Origin: a virus
Lineage: Duplodnaviria; Heunggongvirae; Uroviricota; Caudoviricetes
Strand: one strand, 5' to 3'
DNA: 21,063 nucleotides
IMG/VR virus record: IMGVR_UViG_2617270947_000018
Under the pieces are notes generated by a model. The model was not told where the DNA came from. It saw only the letters and a list, made by a program, of their open reading frames with translations, and searched no databases. Below are positions 3,238-21,063 of this stretch, in pieces. A program made the translations under genes and the position numbers. Every line of letters begins with the position of its first letter. Position 1 is the stretch's first letter.

Positions 3238-3509
3238 GTATTCGTATCGAAATTGGCGAACGTTATGTCGTTACCAGTGACAGCTTTCAGTTTATTCTCC
3301 ACGAGAAAAAGAGAGCGGAAAGCGGTAAAAACGCCGGTCAGGAATGGCTGTCGGTGGTTGGTTATTACCCGAAATTAAGCCAGCTCGTTTCCGGCCTGAT
3401 GCATCACGATATTCTGACCGGAAGCGCAAAGTCTTTTGCTGATTTAAACGCGCAGGTTGAGCAACTCAGCAAGCGTTGTTCAGAGGCTTTTGGCTCATAT
3501 GGCCGTTAA
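3234..3509 (+). CDS. Hypothetical early protein (P2 orf83-like)
   Basis: 91-aa ORF; ATG overlaps the previous stop; its 3' end overlaps the first 11 nt of gene A. Confidence 0.55.
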   Translation: MSIRIEIGERYVVTSDSFQFILHEKKRAESGKNAGQEWLSVVGYYPKLSQLVSGLMHHDILTGSAKSFADLNAQVEQLSKRCSEAFGSYGR

Positions 3510-5784
3510 AGCCTCCGGGCGTTTTGTCCCTCCGTCAGCATTTGCCGCAGGCACCGGTAAGGCGTTTACCGGTGCTTATGCATGGAACGCGCCACGCGAG
3601 GCCGTCGGGCGCGAAAGACCCCTTACACGTGACGAGATGCGTCAGGTGCAAGGTGTTTTATCCACGATTAACCGCCTGCCTTACTTTTTGCGCTCGCTGT
3701 TTACTTCACGCTATGACTACATCCGGCGCAATAAAAGCCCGGTGCACGGGTTTTATTTTCTCACATCCACTTTTCAGCGTCGTTTATGGCCGCGCATTGA
3801 GCGTGTGAATCAGCGCCATGAAATGAACACCGACGCGTCGTTGCTGTTTCTGGCAGAGCGTGACCATTATGCGCGTCTGCCGGGGATGAATGACAAGGAG
3901 CTGAAAAAGTTTGCCGCCCGTATCTCATCGCAGCTTTTCATGATGTATGAGGAACTCTGCGATGCCTGGGTGGATGCGCATGGCGAGAAAGAATCGCTGT
4001 TTACGGATGAGGCACAGGCTCACCTGTATGGTCATGTTGCTGGCGCTGCACGAGCTTTCAATATTTCCCCTCTCTACTGGAAAAAATACCGTAAAGGGCA
4101 GATGACCACGAGGCAGGCATATTCTGCCATTGCCCGTCTGTTTAACGATGAGTGGTGGATTAGTCAGCTTAAAGGCCAGCGTATGCGCTGGCATGAGGCG
4201 TTACTGATTGCTGTCGGGGAGGTCAATAAAGACCGTTCTCCTTATGCCAGTAAACATGCCATTCGTGATGTGCGTGCACGCCGCCAGGCAAATCTGGAAT
4301 TTCTTAAATCGTGTGATCTCGAAAACAGGGAAACCGGCGAGCGCATCGACCTTATCAGTAAGGTGATGGGCAGTATTTCTAATCCTGAAATTCGCCGGAT
4401 GGAGCTGATGAACACCATTGCCGGTATTGAGCGTTACGCCGCAGCAGAGGGTGATGTGGGGATGTTTATCACGCTGACCGCGCCGTCAAAGTATCACCCG
4501 ACACGTCAGGTTGGAAAAGGCGAAAGTAAAACCGTCCAGCTAAATCACGGCTGGAACGATGAGGCATTTAATCCAAAGGATGCGCAGCGTTATCTCTGCC
4601 GTATCTGGAGCCTGATGCGCACGGCATTCAAGGATAATGATTTACAGGTCTACGGTTTGCGTGTCGTCGAGCCACACCACGACGGAACGCCGCACTGGCA
4701 TATGATGCTTTTTTGTAATCCGCGCCAGCGTAACCAGATTATCGAAATCATGCGTCGCTATGCGCTCAAAGAGGATGGCGACGAAAGAGGAGCCGCGCGA
4801 AACCGTTTTCAGGCAAAACACCTTAATCGGGGCGGTGCTGCGGGGTATATCGCGAAATACATCTCAAAAAACATCGACGGCTATGCACTGGATGGTCAGC
4901 TCGATAACGATACCGGCAGACCTCTGAAAGATACTGCCGCGGCTGTTACTGCATGGGCGTCAACGTGGCGCATCCCGCAATTTAAAACGGTTGGTCTGCC
5001 GACAATGGGGGCTTACCGTGAACTACGCAAATTGCCTCGCGGCGTCAGCATTGCTGATGAGTTTGACGAACGCGTCGAGGCTGCACGCGCTGCCGCAGAC
5101 AGTGGCGATTTTGCGTTGTATATCAGTGCGCAGGGTGGGGCAAATGTCCCGCGCGATTGTCAGACTGTCAGGGTCGCCCGTAGTCCGTCGGATGAAGTTA
5201 ACGAGTACGAGGAAGAAGTCGAGAGAGTGGTCGGCATTTACGCGCCGCATCTCGGCGCGCGTCATATTCATATCACCAGAACGACGGACTGGCGCATTGT
5301 TCCGAAAGTGCCGGTCGTTGAGCCTTTGACTTTAAAAAGCGGCATCGCCGCGCCTCGGAGTCCTGTCAATAACTGTGGAATGCTCACCGGTGGTGATACT
5401 TCGTTACCGGCTCCCACACCTTCTGAGCACGCCGCAGCAGTGCTTAATCTGGTTGATGACGGAGTTATCGAATGGAATGAGCCGGAGGTCGTGAGGGCGC
5501 TCAGGGGCGCATTAAAACACGGCCTGAGAACACCTAATCGTCAGCAAAGAAACGGAAGCCCGTTAAAACAGCATGAAATAGCGCCATCGGCCAGACTGAC
5601 CCGGTCGGAACGAATGCAAATCACCCGTATCCGTGTTGACCTTGCTCAGAACGGTATCAGGCCGCAGCGATGGGAGCTTGAGGCGCTGGCGCGTGGCGCG
5701 ACCGTAAATTATGACGGGAAAAAATTCACGTATCCGGTCGCTGATGAGTGGCCGGGATTCTCAACGGTAATGGAGTGGATATAA
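3499..5784 (+). CDS. A: Rolling-circle replication initiator (HUH endonuclease, P2 gpA)
   Basis: 761-aa ORF from ATG 3499 (the track's 3457 start is a TTG). HUH metal-binding motif TPHWHMMLF and a Y-x3-Y catalytic tyrosine pair (GYIAKYISK). Sequence and length match P2 A as recalled. Confidence 0.9.
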   Translation: MAVKASGRFVPPSAFAAGTGKAFTGAYAWNAPREAVGRERPLTRDEMRQVQGVLSTINRLPYFLRSLFTSRYDYIRRNKSPVHGFYFLTSTFQRRLWPRIERVNQRHEMNTDASLLFLAERDHYARLPGMNDKELKKFAARISSQLFMMYEELCDAWVDAHGEKESLFTDEAQAHLYGHVAGAARAFNISPLYWKKYRKGQMTTRQAYSAIARLFNDEWWISQLKGQRMRWHEALLIAVGEVNKDRSPYASKHAIRDVRARRQANLEFLKSCDLENRETGERIDLISKVMGSISNPEIRRMELMNTIAGIERYAAAEGDVGMFITLTAPSKYHPTRQVGKGESKTVQLNHGWNDEAFNPKDAQRYLCRIWSLMRTAFKDNDLQVYGLRVVEPHHDGTPHWHMMLFCNPRQRNQIIEIMRRYALKEDGDERGAARNRFQAKHLNRGGAAGYIAKYISKNIDGYALDGQLDNDTGRPLKDTAAAVTAWASTWRIPQFKTVGLPTMGAYRELRKLPRGVSIADEFDERVEAARAAADSGDFALYISAQGGANVPRDCQTVRVARSPSDEVNEYEEEVERVVGIYAPHLGARHIHITRTTDWRIVPKVPVVEPLTLKSGIAAPRSPVNNCGMLTGGDTSLPAPTPSEHAAAVLNLVDDGVIEWNEPEVVRALRGALKHGLRTPNRQQRNGSPLKQHEIAPSARLTRSERMQITRIRVDLAQNGIRPQRWELEALARGATVNYDGKKFTYPVADEWPGFSTVMEWI

Positions 5785-5895
5785 TGGCAAAAATTCACGA
5801 GATCTTAGATAGTTTCGTACTGTATATATTTAGTTGTTACTTGCAGTTTGGTATTGTTTGCCATGGTTGTTTGTTAAGTGCTTTAAAGGTGAGGA

Positions 5896-7734
5896 ATGAG
5901 CGAGTTCGATGTTTTTTCTATTTCAGTTGATGATTTTAAAAAAAGTGAGTACGCCAGTATATTGTTACCACCAAGAAGCCATTCTTATTTTGAAATGGAA
6001 TCTTATTTTTTTCAGTTGTTGTTATTTTATAAGCAAAAAAAAGATGTGAGTTCTTGGAGGGTTTGCTATTTATTACGTTCGTTATTTAGTTTAAAATTTT
6101 CTAAGTCTGGTGATATTATCGACTTTGAGTCTAAAATCATTCTCTATCCTAAGCGAGGTTATAGACCTTCAGATTACAAGGATAATTATTTAACCATATT
6201 AACTTGTATTAAAGAAAATACTGATAACCCTTATATTATATCTAGGGTGTGTGATGTTTTATGGATAAATAACCGTAAGGATATAGATTCTGCTAATAAA
6301 GCAATAGAGTCATATGCTCTAATGATTAATGATGCTTGTGATACTTTGTTAGAAAAAAAGGAATCAGGTGACATCCATGTTTTTGATGTTGTTGACTGCT
6401 TGGATAGAGGTATTACAATATCGCGCATGCTTATTGGCAGGAAAAAACAACTGCAAGGAGGGATAGTTGACTCGACGTTAAGGCTATATCATATATTAAT
6501 AGATTCTAGTATATTTATCGGTGTTTTAAGAATTTCTGAAATTCTTTATAAGAATAATTTATTGTGCCCCTTACAATTGGCTAAGAATGCAGAAAAGATA
6601 GCTGATGAGCATTGTGGAGCTTCTTATTTTGATGCTGTGAAAAAATTGTTTTATTTTGCGTCTGAATTATATGTTAAAAATGATATGGAAGAGCAAGGAA
6701 GAAGGTGCAAAATGAAAGCGACAGAAATAACATTGGCTCAATTTGAACAGTCTTCATCTCCAACATTGAAGGCTCATTGGCTAAGAGTTGCTCTTGGGGA
6801 ATTTAGAGCGATTGGTGGAATGAGTGAAAGGATTAAAGAGATTAAAGAGGAATTAAATTCTATTCGAGATCAAATCAATGATGAAATGTATTCCTTTGCA
6901 ATACCAATGGATCTTAGTGATGTTATCGCTCAGAAAGAGCATATTTATAATCAATTAAATTTCTCAGAAATAATTAAAAAATTAATCTCTAGATTTAAGG
7001 TTGTAAGTGCCAGTGAGATTATGGAAAGAGCTCGCTCTGATGCTAAGAGATATTTTTTTGTTAATGTGAGTGATACGGTTTTTTATGATGACAGAGGACG
7101 CGTTGTGGCAAGGCAACCACCTTTAGATTCTGCTGGGGATATAAGTCTAGATGATGCCTGTGTAAATTATTTAAGAACTAGTAATATTGAGCATCAGTTT
7201 TATGTTTATGGTGAGTTTGAAGTTGTTAGGCAAAGAGTGTTGTCTAGGTATTCATTAAATGAGAATACATTTGACCCAATCTCACAACAAAGTCTATTTG
7301 TTCCTCCTGGGTATGCGGAAATATTTTCTTTAGGATTTCTTAAGCTTTGGCAGGGGGATTATGTGTCTGCCTGTTATTTGTTGTTGCCGCAGTTGGAGAA
7401 TTCAATTAGATGGATTTTAGAATTAAGAAGAAAAGAAACAACGAAAATAGATGTGTCACTTTTTGAGGAGGCTACTAGTCTATCTCAAATGCTTGCAAAT
7501 TATAAGAGTGAAATGGAAGGTATTTTTGGGAGTGATCATGTATTGACTATGGATTTATTGTTCAATATGAAAGGTGGTGCTGCAATTAGACACACGATGG
7601 CTCATGGCAGGTATACTGTAAATCATTGTTATCAACCAACTTCAGTTTTTGCCTGTGTCTTTATCTTTTATTTAACTTGTTTGCCTTTATTTAGTGTATG
7701 GGAAGATAAAGTTGAACCTTATCTGACTGATTAA
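5896..7734 (+). CDS. Hypothetical 612-aa protein; AT-rich cargo gene in the P2 tin/old slot; candidate anti-phage (abortive-infection-like) effector with HEPN-like R-x4-H motif and C-terminal hydrophobic tail
   Basis: Long uninterrupted ORF in a region of about 25% G+C (counted on sampled 60-nt lines) against about 55% in flanking phage genes. Strong SD (AAAGGTGAGGA) precedes ATG 5896. No Walker A (GxxxxGK[ST]) motif. Near the C-terminus, GGAAIRHTMAHG (R565-x4-H570, nt 7588-7605) is followed by a 19-aa hydrophobic stretch VFACVFIFYLTCLPLFSVW (nt 7645-7701). It lies between gene A and cos, where P2 carries tin/old. Confidence 0.75.
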   Translation: MSEFDVFSISVDDFKKSEYASILLPPRSHSYFEMESYFFQLLLFYKQKKDVSSWRVCYLLRSLFSLKFSKSGDIIDFESKIILYPKRGYRPSDYKDNYLTILTCIKENTDNPYIISRVCDVLWINNRKDIDSANKAIESYALMINDACDTLLEKKESGDIHVFDVVDCLDRGITISRMLIGRKKQLQGGIVDSTLRLYHILIDSSIFIGVLRISEILYKNNLLCPLQLAKNAEKIADEHCGASYFDAVKKLFYFASELYVKNDMEEQGRRCKMKATEITLAQFEQSSSPTLKAHWLRVALGEFRAIGGMSERIKEIKEELNSIRDQINDEMYSFAIPMDLSDVIAQKEHIYNQLNFSEIIKKLISRFKVVSASEIMERARSDAKRYFFVNVSDTVFYDDRGRVVARQPPLDSAGDISLDDACVNYLRTSNIEHQFYVYGEFEVVRQRVLSRYSLNENTFDPISQQSLFVPPGYAEIFSLGFLKLWQGDYVSACYLLLPQLENSIRWILELRRKETTKIDVSLFEEATSLSQMLANYKSEMEGIFGSDHVLTMDLLFNMKGGAAIRHTMAHGRYTVNHCYQPTSVFACVFIFYLTCLPLFSVWEDKVEPYLTD

Positions 7735-7895
7735 TGGAAGTTGATTTAGGTATTTTGGCATTTATCTTTCTGCGTGCAATATGTGCATGGTTTTGCATGT
7801 GCCGGAGTTGCATGTTCCGGCCGTGCGTCCGCCAGAACGGGCGTGGCTCAAAAGCGGTATTGCACCTGCATTAAAAACACCCCATGAAGCGGGCG

Positions 7896-8083: not shown

Positions 8084-9118
8084 TCAGCCGTTGTCAGTGT
8101 CCAGTGAGTAGTTTTTAAAGCGGATGACCTCCTGACCGAGCCAGCCGTTTATCTCGCGGATCCTGTCCTGTAACGGGATAAGCTCATTGCGGACAAAGAC
8201 CTTTGCCACTTTCTCAATATCACCCAGCGACCCGACGTTCTCCGGCTTGCCCCCCATCAACTGAAAGGGGATGCGGTGCGCGTCCAGCAGGTCAGCGGCG
8301 CTGGCTTTTTTGATATTAAAAAAATCGTCCTTCGTTGCCACTTCACTGAGCGGGATAATTTTAATGCCGTCGGCTTTCCCCTGTGGGGCATAGAGAAACA
8401 GATTTTTAAAGTTATTGCGGCCTTTCGACTTAACCATGTTTTCGCGAAGCATTTCGATATCGTTGCGATCCTGCACGGCATCAGTGACGTACATGATGTA
8501 TCCGGCATGTGCGCCGTTTTCGTAATACTTGCGGCGGAACAGCGTGGCCGACTCATTCAGCCAGGCAGAGTTAAGGGCGCTGAGATATTCCGGCAGGCCG
8601 TACAGCTCCTGATTAATATCCGGCTCCAGCAGGTGAAACACGGAGCCGGGCGTGAAAGGTGTCGGCTCGTTGAAGGACGGCACCCACCAGTAAACATCCT
8701 CCTCCACCCCACGGCGGGTATATTTTGCCGGTGAGGTTTCCAGTCTGATGACCTTACCGGTAGTGCTGTAACGCTTTTCCAGAAACGCATTACCGAACAC
8801 CAGAAAATCCAGCACAAAGCGGCTGAAATCCTGCTGAGAAAGCCACGGATGCGGGATAAATGTCGAGGCCAGAATATTGCGTTTGACGTAAATTGGTGAG
8901 CTGTGATGCACGGCAGCACGCAGGCTTTTTGCCAGACCAGTAAAGCTGACCGGTGGCTCATACCATCTGCCGTTACTGATGCACTCGACGTAATCCAGAA
9001 TGTCACGGCGGTCGAGTACCGGCACCGGCTCACCAAAGGTGAATGCTTCCATTTTCGGGGCGCTGGCGGTCATTTTTTTTGCCGCAGGTTGCGGTGTTTT
9101 CCCTTTTTTCTTGCTCAT
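8084..9118 (-). CDS. Q: Portal protein (P2 gpQ)
   Basis: 344-aa minus-strand ORF, the same length and position as P2 Q; translation matches P2 Q as recalled. Its start overlaps the P stop (ATGA). Confidence 0.9.
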   Translation of the reverse strand: MSKKKGKTPQPAAKKMTASAPKMEAFTFGEPVPVLDRRDILDYVECISNGRWYEPPVSFTGLAKSLRAAVHHSSPIYVKRNILASTFIPHPWLSQQDFSRFVLDFLVFGNAFLEKRYSTTGKVIRLETSPAKYTRRGVEEDVYWWVPSFNEPTPFTPGSVFHLLEPDINQELYGLPEYLSALNSAWLNESATLFRRKYYENGAHAGYIMYVTDAVQDRNDIEMLRENMVKSKGRNNFKNLFLYAPQGKADGIKIIPLSEVATKDDFFNIKKASAADLLDAHRIPFQLMGGKPENVGSLGDIEKVAKVFVRNELIPLQDRIREINGWLGQEVIRFKNYSLDTDNG

Positions 9119-19791: not shown

Positions 19792-21063
19792 CTTAAGGGT
19801 TGAACCATCTGAAGAATGCGACGCCTCGGTGCCTCGTTAAGACGATGCCTCGCGTTCTTCAATTGCGTTTTGTAGGCTGTCAGGGATACTGTCCCACGAA
19901 TGGCCACCTGTAAGCTCCAGATGACCATTTTTGTTATTCTCCACAACGAGTTAGTTCTTCTTTTCGGATCCGGCACTTCTGGGGGGGAAATCCAGCGATG
20001 GCTGGATTATGTCGTCAATTAAAAATGCGGCGAGTAGATTAGCAAATATCCACGCTTTCGCGAGTTCAGGTTCCTTTGCACGCAAAGCATCCAGGTGCAG
20101 CAAACTTTTGAGCCGCTTAAAAGCCAGTTCAATTTGCCATCGCAGACGGTAACAATCAGCCACTTGCTCTGCTGAATATTCATCTTCCGGTAATGATGTT
20201 AGCAATAGCACATGGCCCGCTGCTTCCAGCGTTTCCGCCTGAACTACTCGTCCTTTTCGACGATTCTCGCTGAGCAGTCGGGTTTTACTGATTAATGCTT
20301 TTTCGGGAGGAAGTGATACGGCAATGAGACGTGCCGGAAAGGGAGCTCCGGCTTTTTTATTACCTGAATTGCCTATCATTACAGTGGTTTCACCGTTCTT
20401 ACCGCAATCCAGCCCGCGCAGAAAACCCATCATGTCAAAGCGCATTCCTTCTGCAGTTAACCAGCGCAATCCTCGCCAGTGAACCCGGACGATATAATCA
20501 GCTTCTCCAAAAGCAAGTGAGCGGATACATTCGGGACGCGAACCGAATCCCCGGTCAGCAATGCGTATCTCGTCTGCCGTTTGCGCAAATCGGTCCAGCC
20601 GTTCAGCGTCTCTGCTGTCGGTTAGCTCAAAATCAGTGAACTGACAGGTATGAGGATCATATCCCATATGTAGTCGCCATTCAGCGCTGCCGCCCCCGGG
20701 CGCACTGATTGCTGTTCCATCGACAAGACGCAATCTCTTTCCGCTTGTACAACCCGTAACTGCGGCGCGTACAGCAAGTGTTTGTGCGGCAAGTATGCCA
20801 AACCAGTCGGCGGCATTCCGCAGCCGCTTCAGGAGAGCCACGTCAGATAATGTTGCAACGTCATGGAGCTGAGCCCATGCAGTGACTTCACGTAATGACA
20901 TCCCCCCGGGGCCGTAAGCCAGCCCCAGACGTAGCAGAGTTGCAGCATCACGAATTTCGCGGCGGCGGGTTAGAGCCCCGGCATTACGTGCCGAAGTATC
21001 CAGTTCTTCGGGCTTACCAATATGGGCCAGAATTGCTGACCAGTTATCGTGAGAGTAATTCAT
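19780..21063 (-). mobile_element. IS186-like insertion sequence (IS4 family), partial; extends beyond the window
   Basis: The terminal sequence CATAAGCGCTAACTTAAGGGTTG begins at about 19780 and is recalled as the IS186 inverted repeat. It contains the complete 370-aa transposase ORF. The implied length (about 171 bp, plus 1113 bp ORF, plus about 50 bp beyond the window) fits the roughly 1.34-kb IS186. Confidence 0.8.
19951..21063 (-). CDS. insL: IS186 transposase (DDE, IS4 family)
   Basis: 370-aa minus-strand ORF whose ATG is the last three bases of the window; the translation (MNYSHDNWSAILAHIGKPEELD...) matches the IS186 transposase as recalled. Confidence 0.88.
   Translation of the reverse strand: MNYSHDNWSAILAHIGKPEELDTSARNAGALTRRREIRDAATLLRLGLAYGPGGMSLREVTAWAQLHDVATLSDVALLKRLRNAADWFGILAAQTLAVRAAVTGCTSGKRLRLVDGTAISAPGGGSAEWRLHMGYDPHTCQFTDFELTDSRDAERLDRFAQTADEIRIADRGFGSRPECIRSLAFGEADYIVRVHWRGLRWLTAEGMRFDMMGFLRGLDCGKNGETTVMIGNSGNKKAGAPFPARLIAVSLPPEKALISKTRLLSENRRKGRVVQAETLEAAGHVLLLTSLPEDEYSAEQVADCYRLRWQIELAFKRLKSLLHLDALRAKEPELAKAWIFANLLAAFLIDDIIQPSLDFPPRSAGSEKKN

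Follow-up and report, generated by a model that had tools for sequence, protein, structure and literature searches.

A single-gene DUF4209-type HEPN protein, a predicted ribonuclease, in the gpA-gpQ cargo slot of a P2-like Escherichia coli prophage

The stretch of viral DNA analysed here (IMG/VR virus record IMGVR_UViG_2617270947_000018, Caudoviricetes; 21,063 nucleotides, hereafter the window) originates, judged from its gene content and flanks, from a P2-like prophage of Escherichia coli. Between the gene for the replication endonuclease gpA and that for portal protein gpQ it carries a gene at 5896–7734 (+) for a 612-residue protein, hereafter the window protein. The conserved R565 and H570 in the C-terminal part of this protein mark a genuine HEPN-type ribonuclease (RNase) active site, from which RNase activity is predicted, and the strongly hydrophobic segment behind them is, according to structural models and family statistics, most likely the last core helix (helix-4) of the HEPN domain and no membrane anchor. 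A first-pass annotation had proposed the HEPN motif from the nucleotide sequence; this inference is correct, but a computational assignment of the family to HEPN dates from 2013, and PADLOC already includes the protein as a candidate. Overall, the gene probably represents a cytosolic one-protein sensor-RNase abortive-infection system and the sole cargo of the gpA-gpQ hotspot. The gene and the parts of its product are located in the window as follows.

5896–7734, + strand: cargo gene, 612 amino acids (aa), with DUF7380, tetratricopeptide repeat (TPR)-like and DUF4209-type HEPN parts (open reading frame (ORF) list, translation, PADLOC, RefSeq coding sequence at identical coordinates)
5917–6447, + strand: DUF7380 domain, aa 8–184 (Pfam PF24098, E 8e-26)
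6448–7257, + strand: middle all-alpha region, aa 185–454, joining the N-terminus in a TPR-like helical-repeat scaffold
7315–7731, + strand: HEPN domain of the DUF4209 / C6orf70-ERMARD family, aa 474–612 (modelled as 455–612)
7396–7410, + strand: E501-N-S-I-R505, the HEPN helix-2 E-x3-[KR] motif in helix 489–510 (conservation and model)
7588–7608, + strand: catalytic-type R565-H-T-M-A-H570-G571 at the end of HEPN helix-3 (conservation, 138 homologues)
7636–7728, + strand: helix 581–611, including residues 584–602, read as HEPN helix-4 (DSSP, both models, conservation, hydrophobicity statistics)

Translation of 5896–7734 reproduced the coordinates and residue numbers of the first-pass annotation exactly. 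The product holds GGAAIRHTMAHG with R565 (nt 7588–7590) and H570 (nt 7603–7605), W602 ends at nt 7701, and the protein closes with FNMKGGAAIRHTMAHGRYTVNHCYQPTSVFACVFIFYLTCLPLFSVWEDKVEPYLTD directly before the stop codon (closing residues in an alternative excerpt: GGAAIRHTMAHGRYTVNHCYQPTSVFACVFIFYLTCLPLFSVWEDKVEPYLTD). The pattern R-x4-6-H occurs three times in the window protein, and 85 % of composition-preserving shuffles hold at least one match. Since the pattern alone is thus not above chance, it is solely the conservation that lends the motif significance. Conservation was assessed with 138 homologues of full length, whose identity to the query has a median of 23 %; all family counts given below refer to this set. 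Only E501, R565 and H570 are invariant in this alignment (138/138 each), so that both residues singled out from the sequence are unchanged in every homologue; R505 (136/138), G571 (134/138), P498, G561 and P562 are near-invariant. The residue following the arginine, H566, is polar as had been remarked; 113 homologues have H at this position, 23 have N and 2 have D. The published HEPN signature consists of R-x4-6-H with a polar residue following the arginine, located where helix-3 ends, and of the acidic residue of an E-x3-[KR] motif in helix-2 (PMC3710099), which E501-NSI-R505 and R565-HTMA-H570 fit exactly. Invariance of only the arginine, the histidine and the helix-2 glutamate at about 23 % identity is the mark that selection on catalysis leaves. 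The other two R-x4-6-H sites (427 and 572) were considered as a second HEPN motif and ruled out, neither of them being conserved.

Assignment to the DUF4209 family was approached by several searches. A word-indexed protein search retrieved seven close homologues, two of which carry a precomputed PF13910/DUF4209 annotation (P0006, 49 % identical, and P0007); beyond these seven, it yielded short DUF4209 fragments only. The DUF4209 model was matched by five of the seven close homologues and by 38 of 42 homologous C-terminal domains (best E 1.2e-10), and a full-length profile search recovered 3708 cluster representatives (clusters counted at 50 % identity) at E≤1e-3, mostly of 600–630 aa and with end-to-end matches. 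Both PDC-S39 models of PADLOC match aa 8–600 (E 4e-73 and 1.7e-68). Anantharaman et al. 2013 equated DUF4209 with the C6orf70 (ERMARD) HEPN family (PMC3710099), which they described as 'fused to TPR', commoner in bacteria than in eukaryotes and present in operons related to restriction-modification (PMC3710099). Like this family, which is known from computation alone, the window protein possesses, at its C-terminus, a HEPN domain in which E-x3-R lies upstream of R-[NH]-x3-H-G, and the bacterial members share the TPR-like fusion and are linked to restriction-modification or defence loci (PMC3710099). Unlike it, the window protein has His rather than Asn after the arginine and a separately defined DUF7380 N-terminus; the eukaryotic C6orf70 members have been described as endoplasmic reticulum membrane proteins (PMC3710099). 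With PDC-S39, itself a bioinformatic candidate only, it shares the full-length match and the single-gene architecture. Literature searches for ERMARD with HEPN or phage, for WP_042964140 and for P2-EC46 returned nothing useful.

Within the window protein, Pfam matched DUF7380 alone, NCBIfam gave no match and PHROGs offered families of unknown function only. A Walker A or other NTPase motif was looked for in the protein and is absent, in agreement with the first-pass annotation, which had described a large N-terminal region free of nucleotide-binding motifs. The protein displays the architecture of bacterial family members, that is HEPN fused to TPR-like repeats, and the TPR-like helical scaffold is presumed to be the sensor. 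R87, D93, R117, D120, W123, Y140 and R171 are near-invariant residues of DUF7380 across the homologues. A conserved D398/G401 pair is located in a beta-hairpin. Going by sequence conservation, the polar residues of DUF7380 together with D398/G401 suggest a second functional site, which may be binding or catalytic.

Structure was predicted with AlphaFold2 on the 138-sequence alignment, and residues 455–612 were additionally modelled separately. The full-length model is all-alpha (predicted local distance difference test score (pLDDT) 95; predicted TM-score (pTM) 0.85), and the isolated segment reached a pLDDT of 93.5 and a pTM of 0.88. The C-terminal helices comprise residues 474–486, 489–510 (bearing E501 and R505), 546–557, 564–569 (RHTMAH) and 581–611; an insert composed of a beta-hairpin (516–526) and short helices follows helix 489–510, and a loop separates 564–569 from 581–611. 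The model of residues 455–612 matches complete HEPN domains across 100–128 residues. The HEPN fold, which the first-pass annotation had named as a check on its proposal, is thereby predicted in all its elements: a four-helix up-down bundle, an insert that separates helix-2 from helix-3, and the motif ending helix-3 ahead of helix-4. Profile searches of the PDB with the full-length family and with the C-terminal domain detected no solved relative, and a search of viral folds in BFVD yielded weak TPR/Sel1 matches only (TM-scores of about 0.2 or lower).

The 19-residue hydrophobic stretch that had been noted near the C-terminus does exist. VFACVFIFYLTCLPLFSVW (584–602) is the most hydrophobic 19-residue segment of the window protein and attains transmembrane level (Kyte-Doolittle (KD) mean 2.17; summed Hessa −0.04 kcal/mol; transmembrane propensity was judged by these two scales only), with 10 residues following. 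The earlier interpretation as a C-terminal anchor would have this segment span the inner membrane, place the acidic end in the periplasm and hold a toxic RNase with its HEPN site at the membrane until infection. Such an arrangement would be in line with the uncharged segment being the most hydrophobic 19-mer also in the closest relatives (Hessa about 0), with the short acidic tail behind it, and with the single transmembrane region predicted for eukaryotic C6orf70 as well as other membrane-associated bacterial HEPN proteins described (PMC3710099). However, helix 581–611 is read as HEPN helix-4 because it is the sole helix downstream of the R-x4-H motif, and an anchor would deprive the HEPN fold of it. 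AlphaFold places the segment within the compact domain that matches complete HEPN domains, and helix 581–611 has a pLDDT of 97–98 in the full-length and the isolated-domain model. Its columns rank among the best conserved of the protein, with low column entropy and level with the catalytic core; Y585 (124/138), C587 (111/138), W588 (121/138), P597 (113/138) and W602 (108/138) are far better conserved than is usual for lipid-facing anchors. Family medians amount to 1.40 for the KD mean over 19 residues and +5.3 kcal/mol for the Hessa sum, KD exceeds 1.6 in only 35 of the 138 homologues, position 592 is polar in 83 % (R 68, H 30), and in 119 the aligned 19-mer includes one or more charged residues. 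One C-terminal segment of transmembrane-level hydrophobicity is therefore present, but it is neither separate from the fold nor membrane-competent in the homologues, and a tail-anchored toxic RNase appears highly improbable.

The hydrophobicity of the window protein in this region traces to two positions of the presumed helix-4. W588 and a polar residue at position 592 form an i/i+4 pair: 592 is polar in 106 of the 121 homologues with W588 vs 7 of the other 17 (Fisher p 6e-5, ignoring phylogeny). At these positions (nt 7657–7659 and 7669–7671) the window protein has V and Y, and in the clade of E. coli, Citrobacter and Enterobacter both residues are changed to hydrophobic or aromatic ones, which makes the helix resemble a membrane span in this clade. 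That helix-4 of the enterobacterial clade has gained enough hydrophobicity to serve as a conditional membrane-insertion switch is a less likely additional possibility.

The slot that harbours the gene and the signals around it were delimited as follows.

3457–5784, + strand: gpA, P2 replication endonuclease, left edge of the cargo slot (Pfam Phage_GPA, E 9e-124)
8084–9118, − strand: gpQ, P2 portal protein, right edge of the cargo slot (Pfam Phage_portal; RefSeq 'phage portal protein')
5887–5894, + strand: strong Shine-Dalgarno sequence AGGTGAGG directly 5' of the ATG at 5896 (read from the sequence)
5758–5785, + strand: weak candidate for a sigma-70-like promoter, TTCTCA-16-TATAAT (10/12), 5' of the cargo gene (consensus scan)
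7773–7789, + strand: weak terminator-like hairpin 3' of the stop codon (consensus scan only)

The cos-proximal slot between gpA and gpQ is a defence hotspot of P2, in which P2 itself carries old and tin (PMC9122126). The gene at 5896–7734 combines this position with variable occurrence among related prophages, being present in 21 of 2157 complete E. coli genomes whose sequence matches the flanks, and with an atypical composition (GC content 31–37 % vs 52–61 % in the flanks, composition profile). A second credible ORF was sought in the slot, and none was found besides the cargo gene. At the 99.9 % identical locus of E. coli E308 the annotated gene order is replication endonuclease, DUF7380 domain-containing protein and phage portal protein, with the RefSeq start of gpA (named 'replication endonuclease') at 3499. 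Other prophage genes in the window code for an integrase (1–1011, −), a helix-turn-helix repressor, Cox, the terminase gpP, the scaffold gpO and a P2-type capsid protein. The number of sigma-70-like sites in the region is not higher than expected from shuffles. Just past the cargo stop, a tandem 13-nt direct repeat (TTGCATGTGCCGG / TTGCATGTTCCGG, 15-nt spacing, 7793–7820) coincides with the site where the phage-level GC content resumes; the repeat could represent a regulatory element, a cos-proximal element or a cargo-insertion junction. At the right edge of the window, past the P2-like late genes, an ORF for a 370-aa DDE_Tnp_1 transposase (19951–21063, −) looks like an insertion sequence element inserted in or beside the prophage.

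The same slot is occupied in related phages. ORF612 of P2-EC46 (AM157366.1), deposited as a hypothetical protein, is 87.7 % identical, of equal length and likewise placed between gpA and gpQ, and its record marks a ribosome-binding site at the matching relative place. Phage vB_EcoM-569R9 carries there a 35.6 % identical 'DUF4209 domain-containing protein'. Genomes were further scanned for homologues with the seven-sequence alignment. In a degraded P2-like prophage (metagenome contig; Enterobacter), gpA fragments and the portal gene enclose a homologue of 52 % identity. Behind this homologue comes a 303-aa ORF without Pfam match (L003, 9849–10760; L004, 9852–10763), and the position of a GmrSD_N (DUF262) gene between tail gene S and baseplate gene V (L003, 14579–15628) suggests that the late region offers a second site for cargo.

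More distant homologues occur in other settings. One of them (28 % identical) resides in an island with an integrase at each end and adjoins QatABCD, an MmeI-type restriction-modification enzyme and a RES-Xre toxin-antitoxin pair. Directly 3' of a distant homologue, a complete-looking QatABCD-type cluster was observed (L002, 10265–15168), comprising a KAP NTPase, QatB, an unannotated 455-aa gene and TatD; an SNase-domain gene and an MmeI-type restriction-modification enzyme are part of the same stretch. In total, 120 ORFs around nine distant homologues (Yersinia, Sphingomonadales, Binatus, cyanobacteria) were inspected. Defence neighbours in this set include Pycsar, defence-type reverse transcriptases, SoFic, PD-Lambda-2_B and further PDC candidates, next to integrases and a type IV secretion coupling protein. 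No conserved neighbour family was found across the nine loci. A partner or antitoxin gene was ruled out, given the slot without a credible second ORF and the nine loci without a conserved neighbour.

By analogy with characterised HEPN RNases, the following mode of action is proposed. Residues 1–450 (DUF7380 and the TPR-like scaffold) would form a sensing and auto-inhibitory module, and the active site would combine E501-x3-R505, located on helix-2, with R565-H566-x3-H570-G571, which ends helix-3. A phage-derived trigger binding to the helical scaffold might release or dimerise the HEPN domains; because each protein has one HEPN domain only, activation would probably proceed via dimerisation. 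Composite R-x4-H sites from two HEPN domains are known in other HEPN RNases, and two such motifs would here generate a composite, metal-independent RNase site. Cleavage of cellular and/or phage RNA would then stop translation and abort infection by competing phages.

Several observations weigh against this reading. Neither the window protein nor its own C-terminal domain matches PF13910, even at E≤10, and its DUF4209 membership is derived from homologues that do match. The helix of the enterobacterial clade attains transmembrane-level hydrophobicity, and the burial of helix 581–611 is deduced from its position, pLDDT, conservation and hydrophobicity statistics. Many housekeeping genes are among the neighbours of the distant homologues. 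For DUF4209, DUF7380, PDC-S39 and the RefSeq accession, the literature searched contained only the computational assignment of 2013 and passing mentions of PDC-S39 as a candidate. Moreover, certain HEPN domains are non-catalytic binding modules. The HEPN domain could accordingly be silent and act in binding or regulation, in the manner of MtlR or of nucleotidyltransferase substrate-binding domains, with the scaffold performing the actual function, e.g., by sequestering a phage protein. Non-catalytic HEPN families have, however, typically lost R-x4-6-H (PMC3710099), whereas the arginine, the histidine and the helix-2 glutamate are here the sole invariant positions, which renders a silent domain quite improbable. 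An active HEPN RNase might also serve a purpose other than defence, either as a prophage toxin for addiction or stabilisation or as an RNA-processing factor in the cycle of the P2-like phage. About one quarter of the P2 hotspot loci hold non-defence cargo, e.g., partitioning systems, and about 2 % hold cytolethal distending toxin (PMC9122126); nor was a report of anti-phage activity of PDC-S39 found in the literature. Yet the slot has no antitoxin-like partner gene, the patchy occurrence in E. coli genomes places the gene outside the phage's core cycle, and some homologues reside outside prophages beside other defence systems, so that a non-defence role is considered unlikely. The reading as a cytosolic sensor-RNase of abortive infection is thus the one we prefer.

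Compared with known systems, the window protein bears no sequence relation to old, tin or the validated systems of Rousset et al. 2022 (DUF4238, 3HP, DprA-PRTase). Sequence similarity is likewise not detectable with Csm6/Csx1, RnlA/LsoA, HEPN-MNT toxins, the C-terminal HEPN domain of AbiA and PrrC/RloC. In contrast to these HEPN defence RNases, the window protein lacks CARF, NTPase and reverse transcriptase domains as well as an MNT or antitoxin partner, and its regulatory part is a TPR-like scaffold without nucleotide-binding motif.

That a stand-alone, NTPase-free combination of TPR-like sensor and ERMARD-type HEPN domain serves P2-like prophages as a functional one-gene abortive-infection RNase appears to us about evenly poised between true and false. 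If true, the DUF4209/PDC-S39 family, with its more than 3,700 clusters at 50 % identity, would become a defined one-gene defence system, and an NTPase-free sensor-HEPN architecture would be added to the abortive-infection systems. The 'transmembrane' helix predicted in the DUF4209 family might then actually be HEPN helix-4. For annotation, hydrophobicity-based transmembrane calls on the final HEPN helix can be false, and such a call would here misplace a probably cytosolic, predicted RNase in the membrane. To our knowledge, no molecular function is known for human ERMARD (C6orf70). If the proposed activity is real, the DUF4209 family, human ERMARD included, would receive its first biochemical function from the prophage protein, which is a clean test case with a single gene and would make the human protein accessible through a tractable bacterial model.

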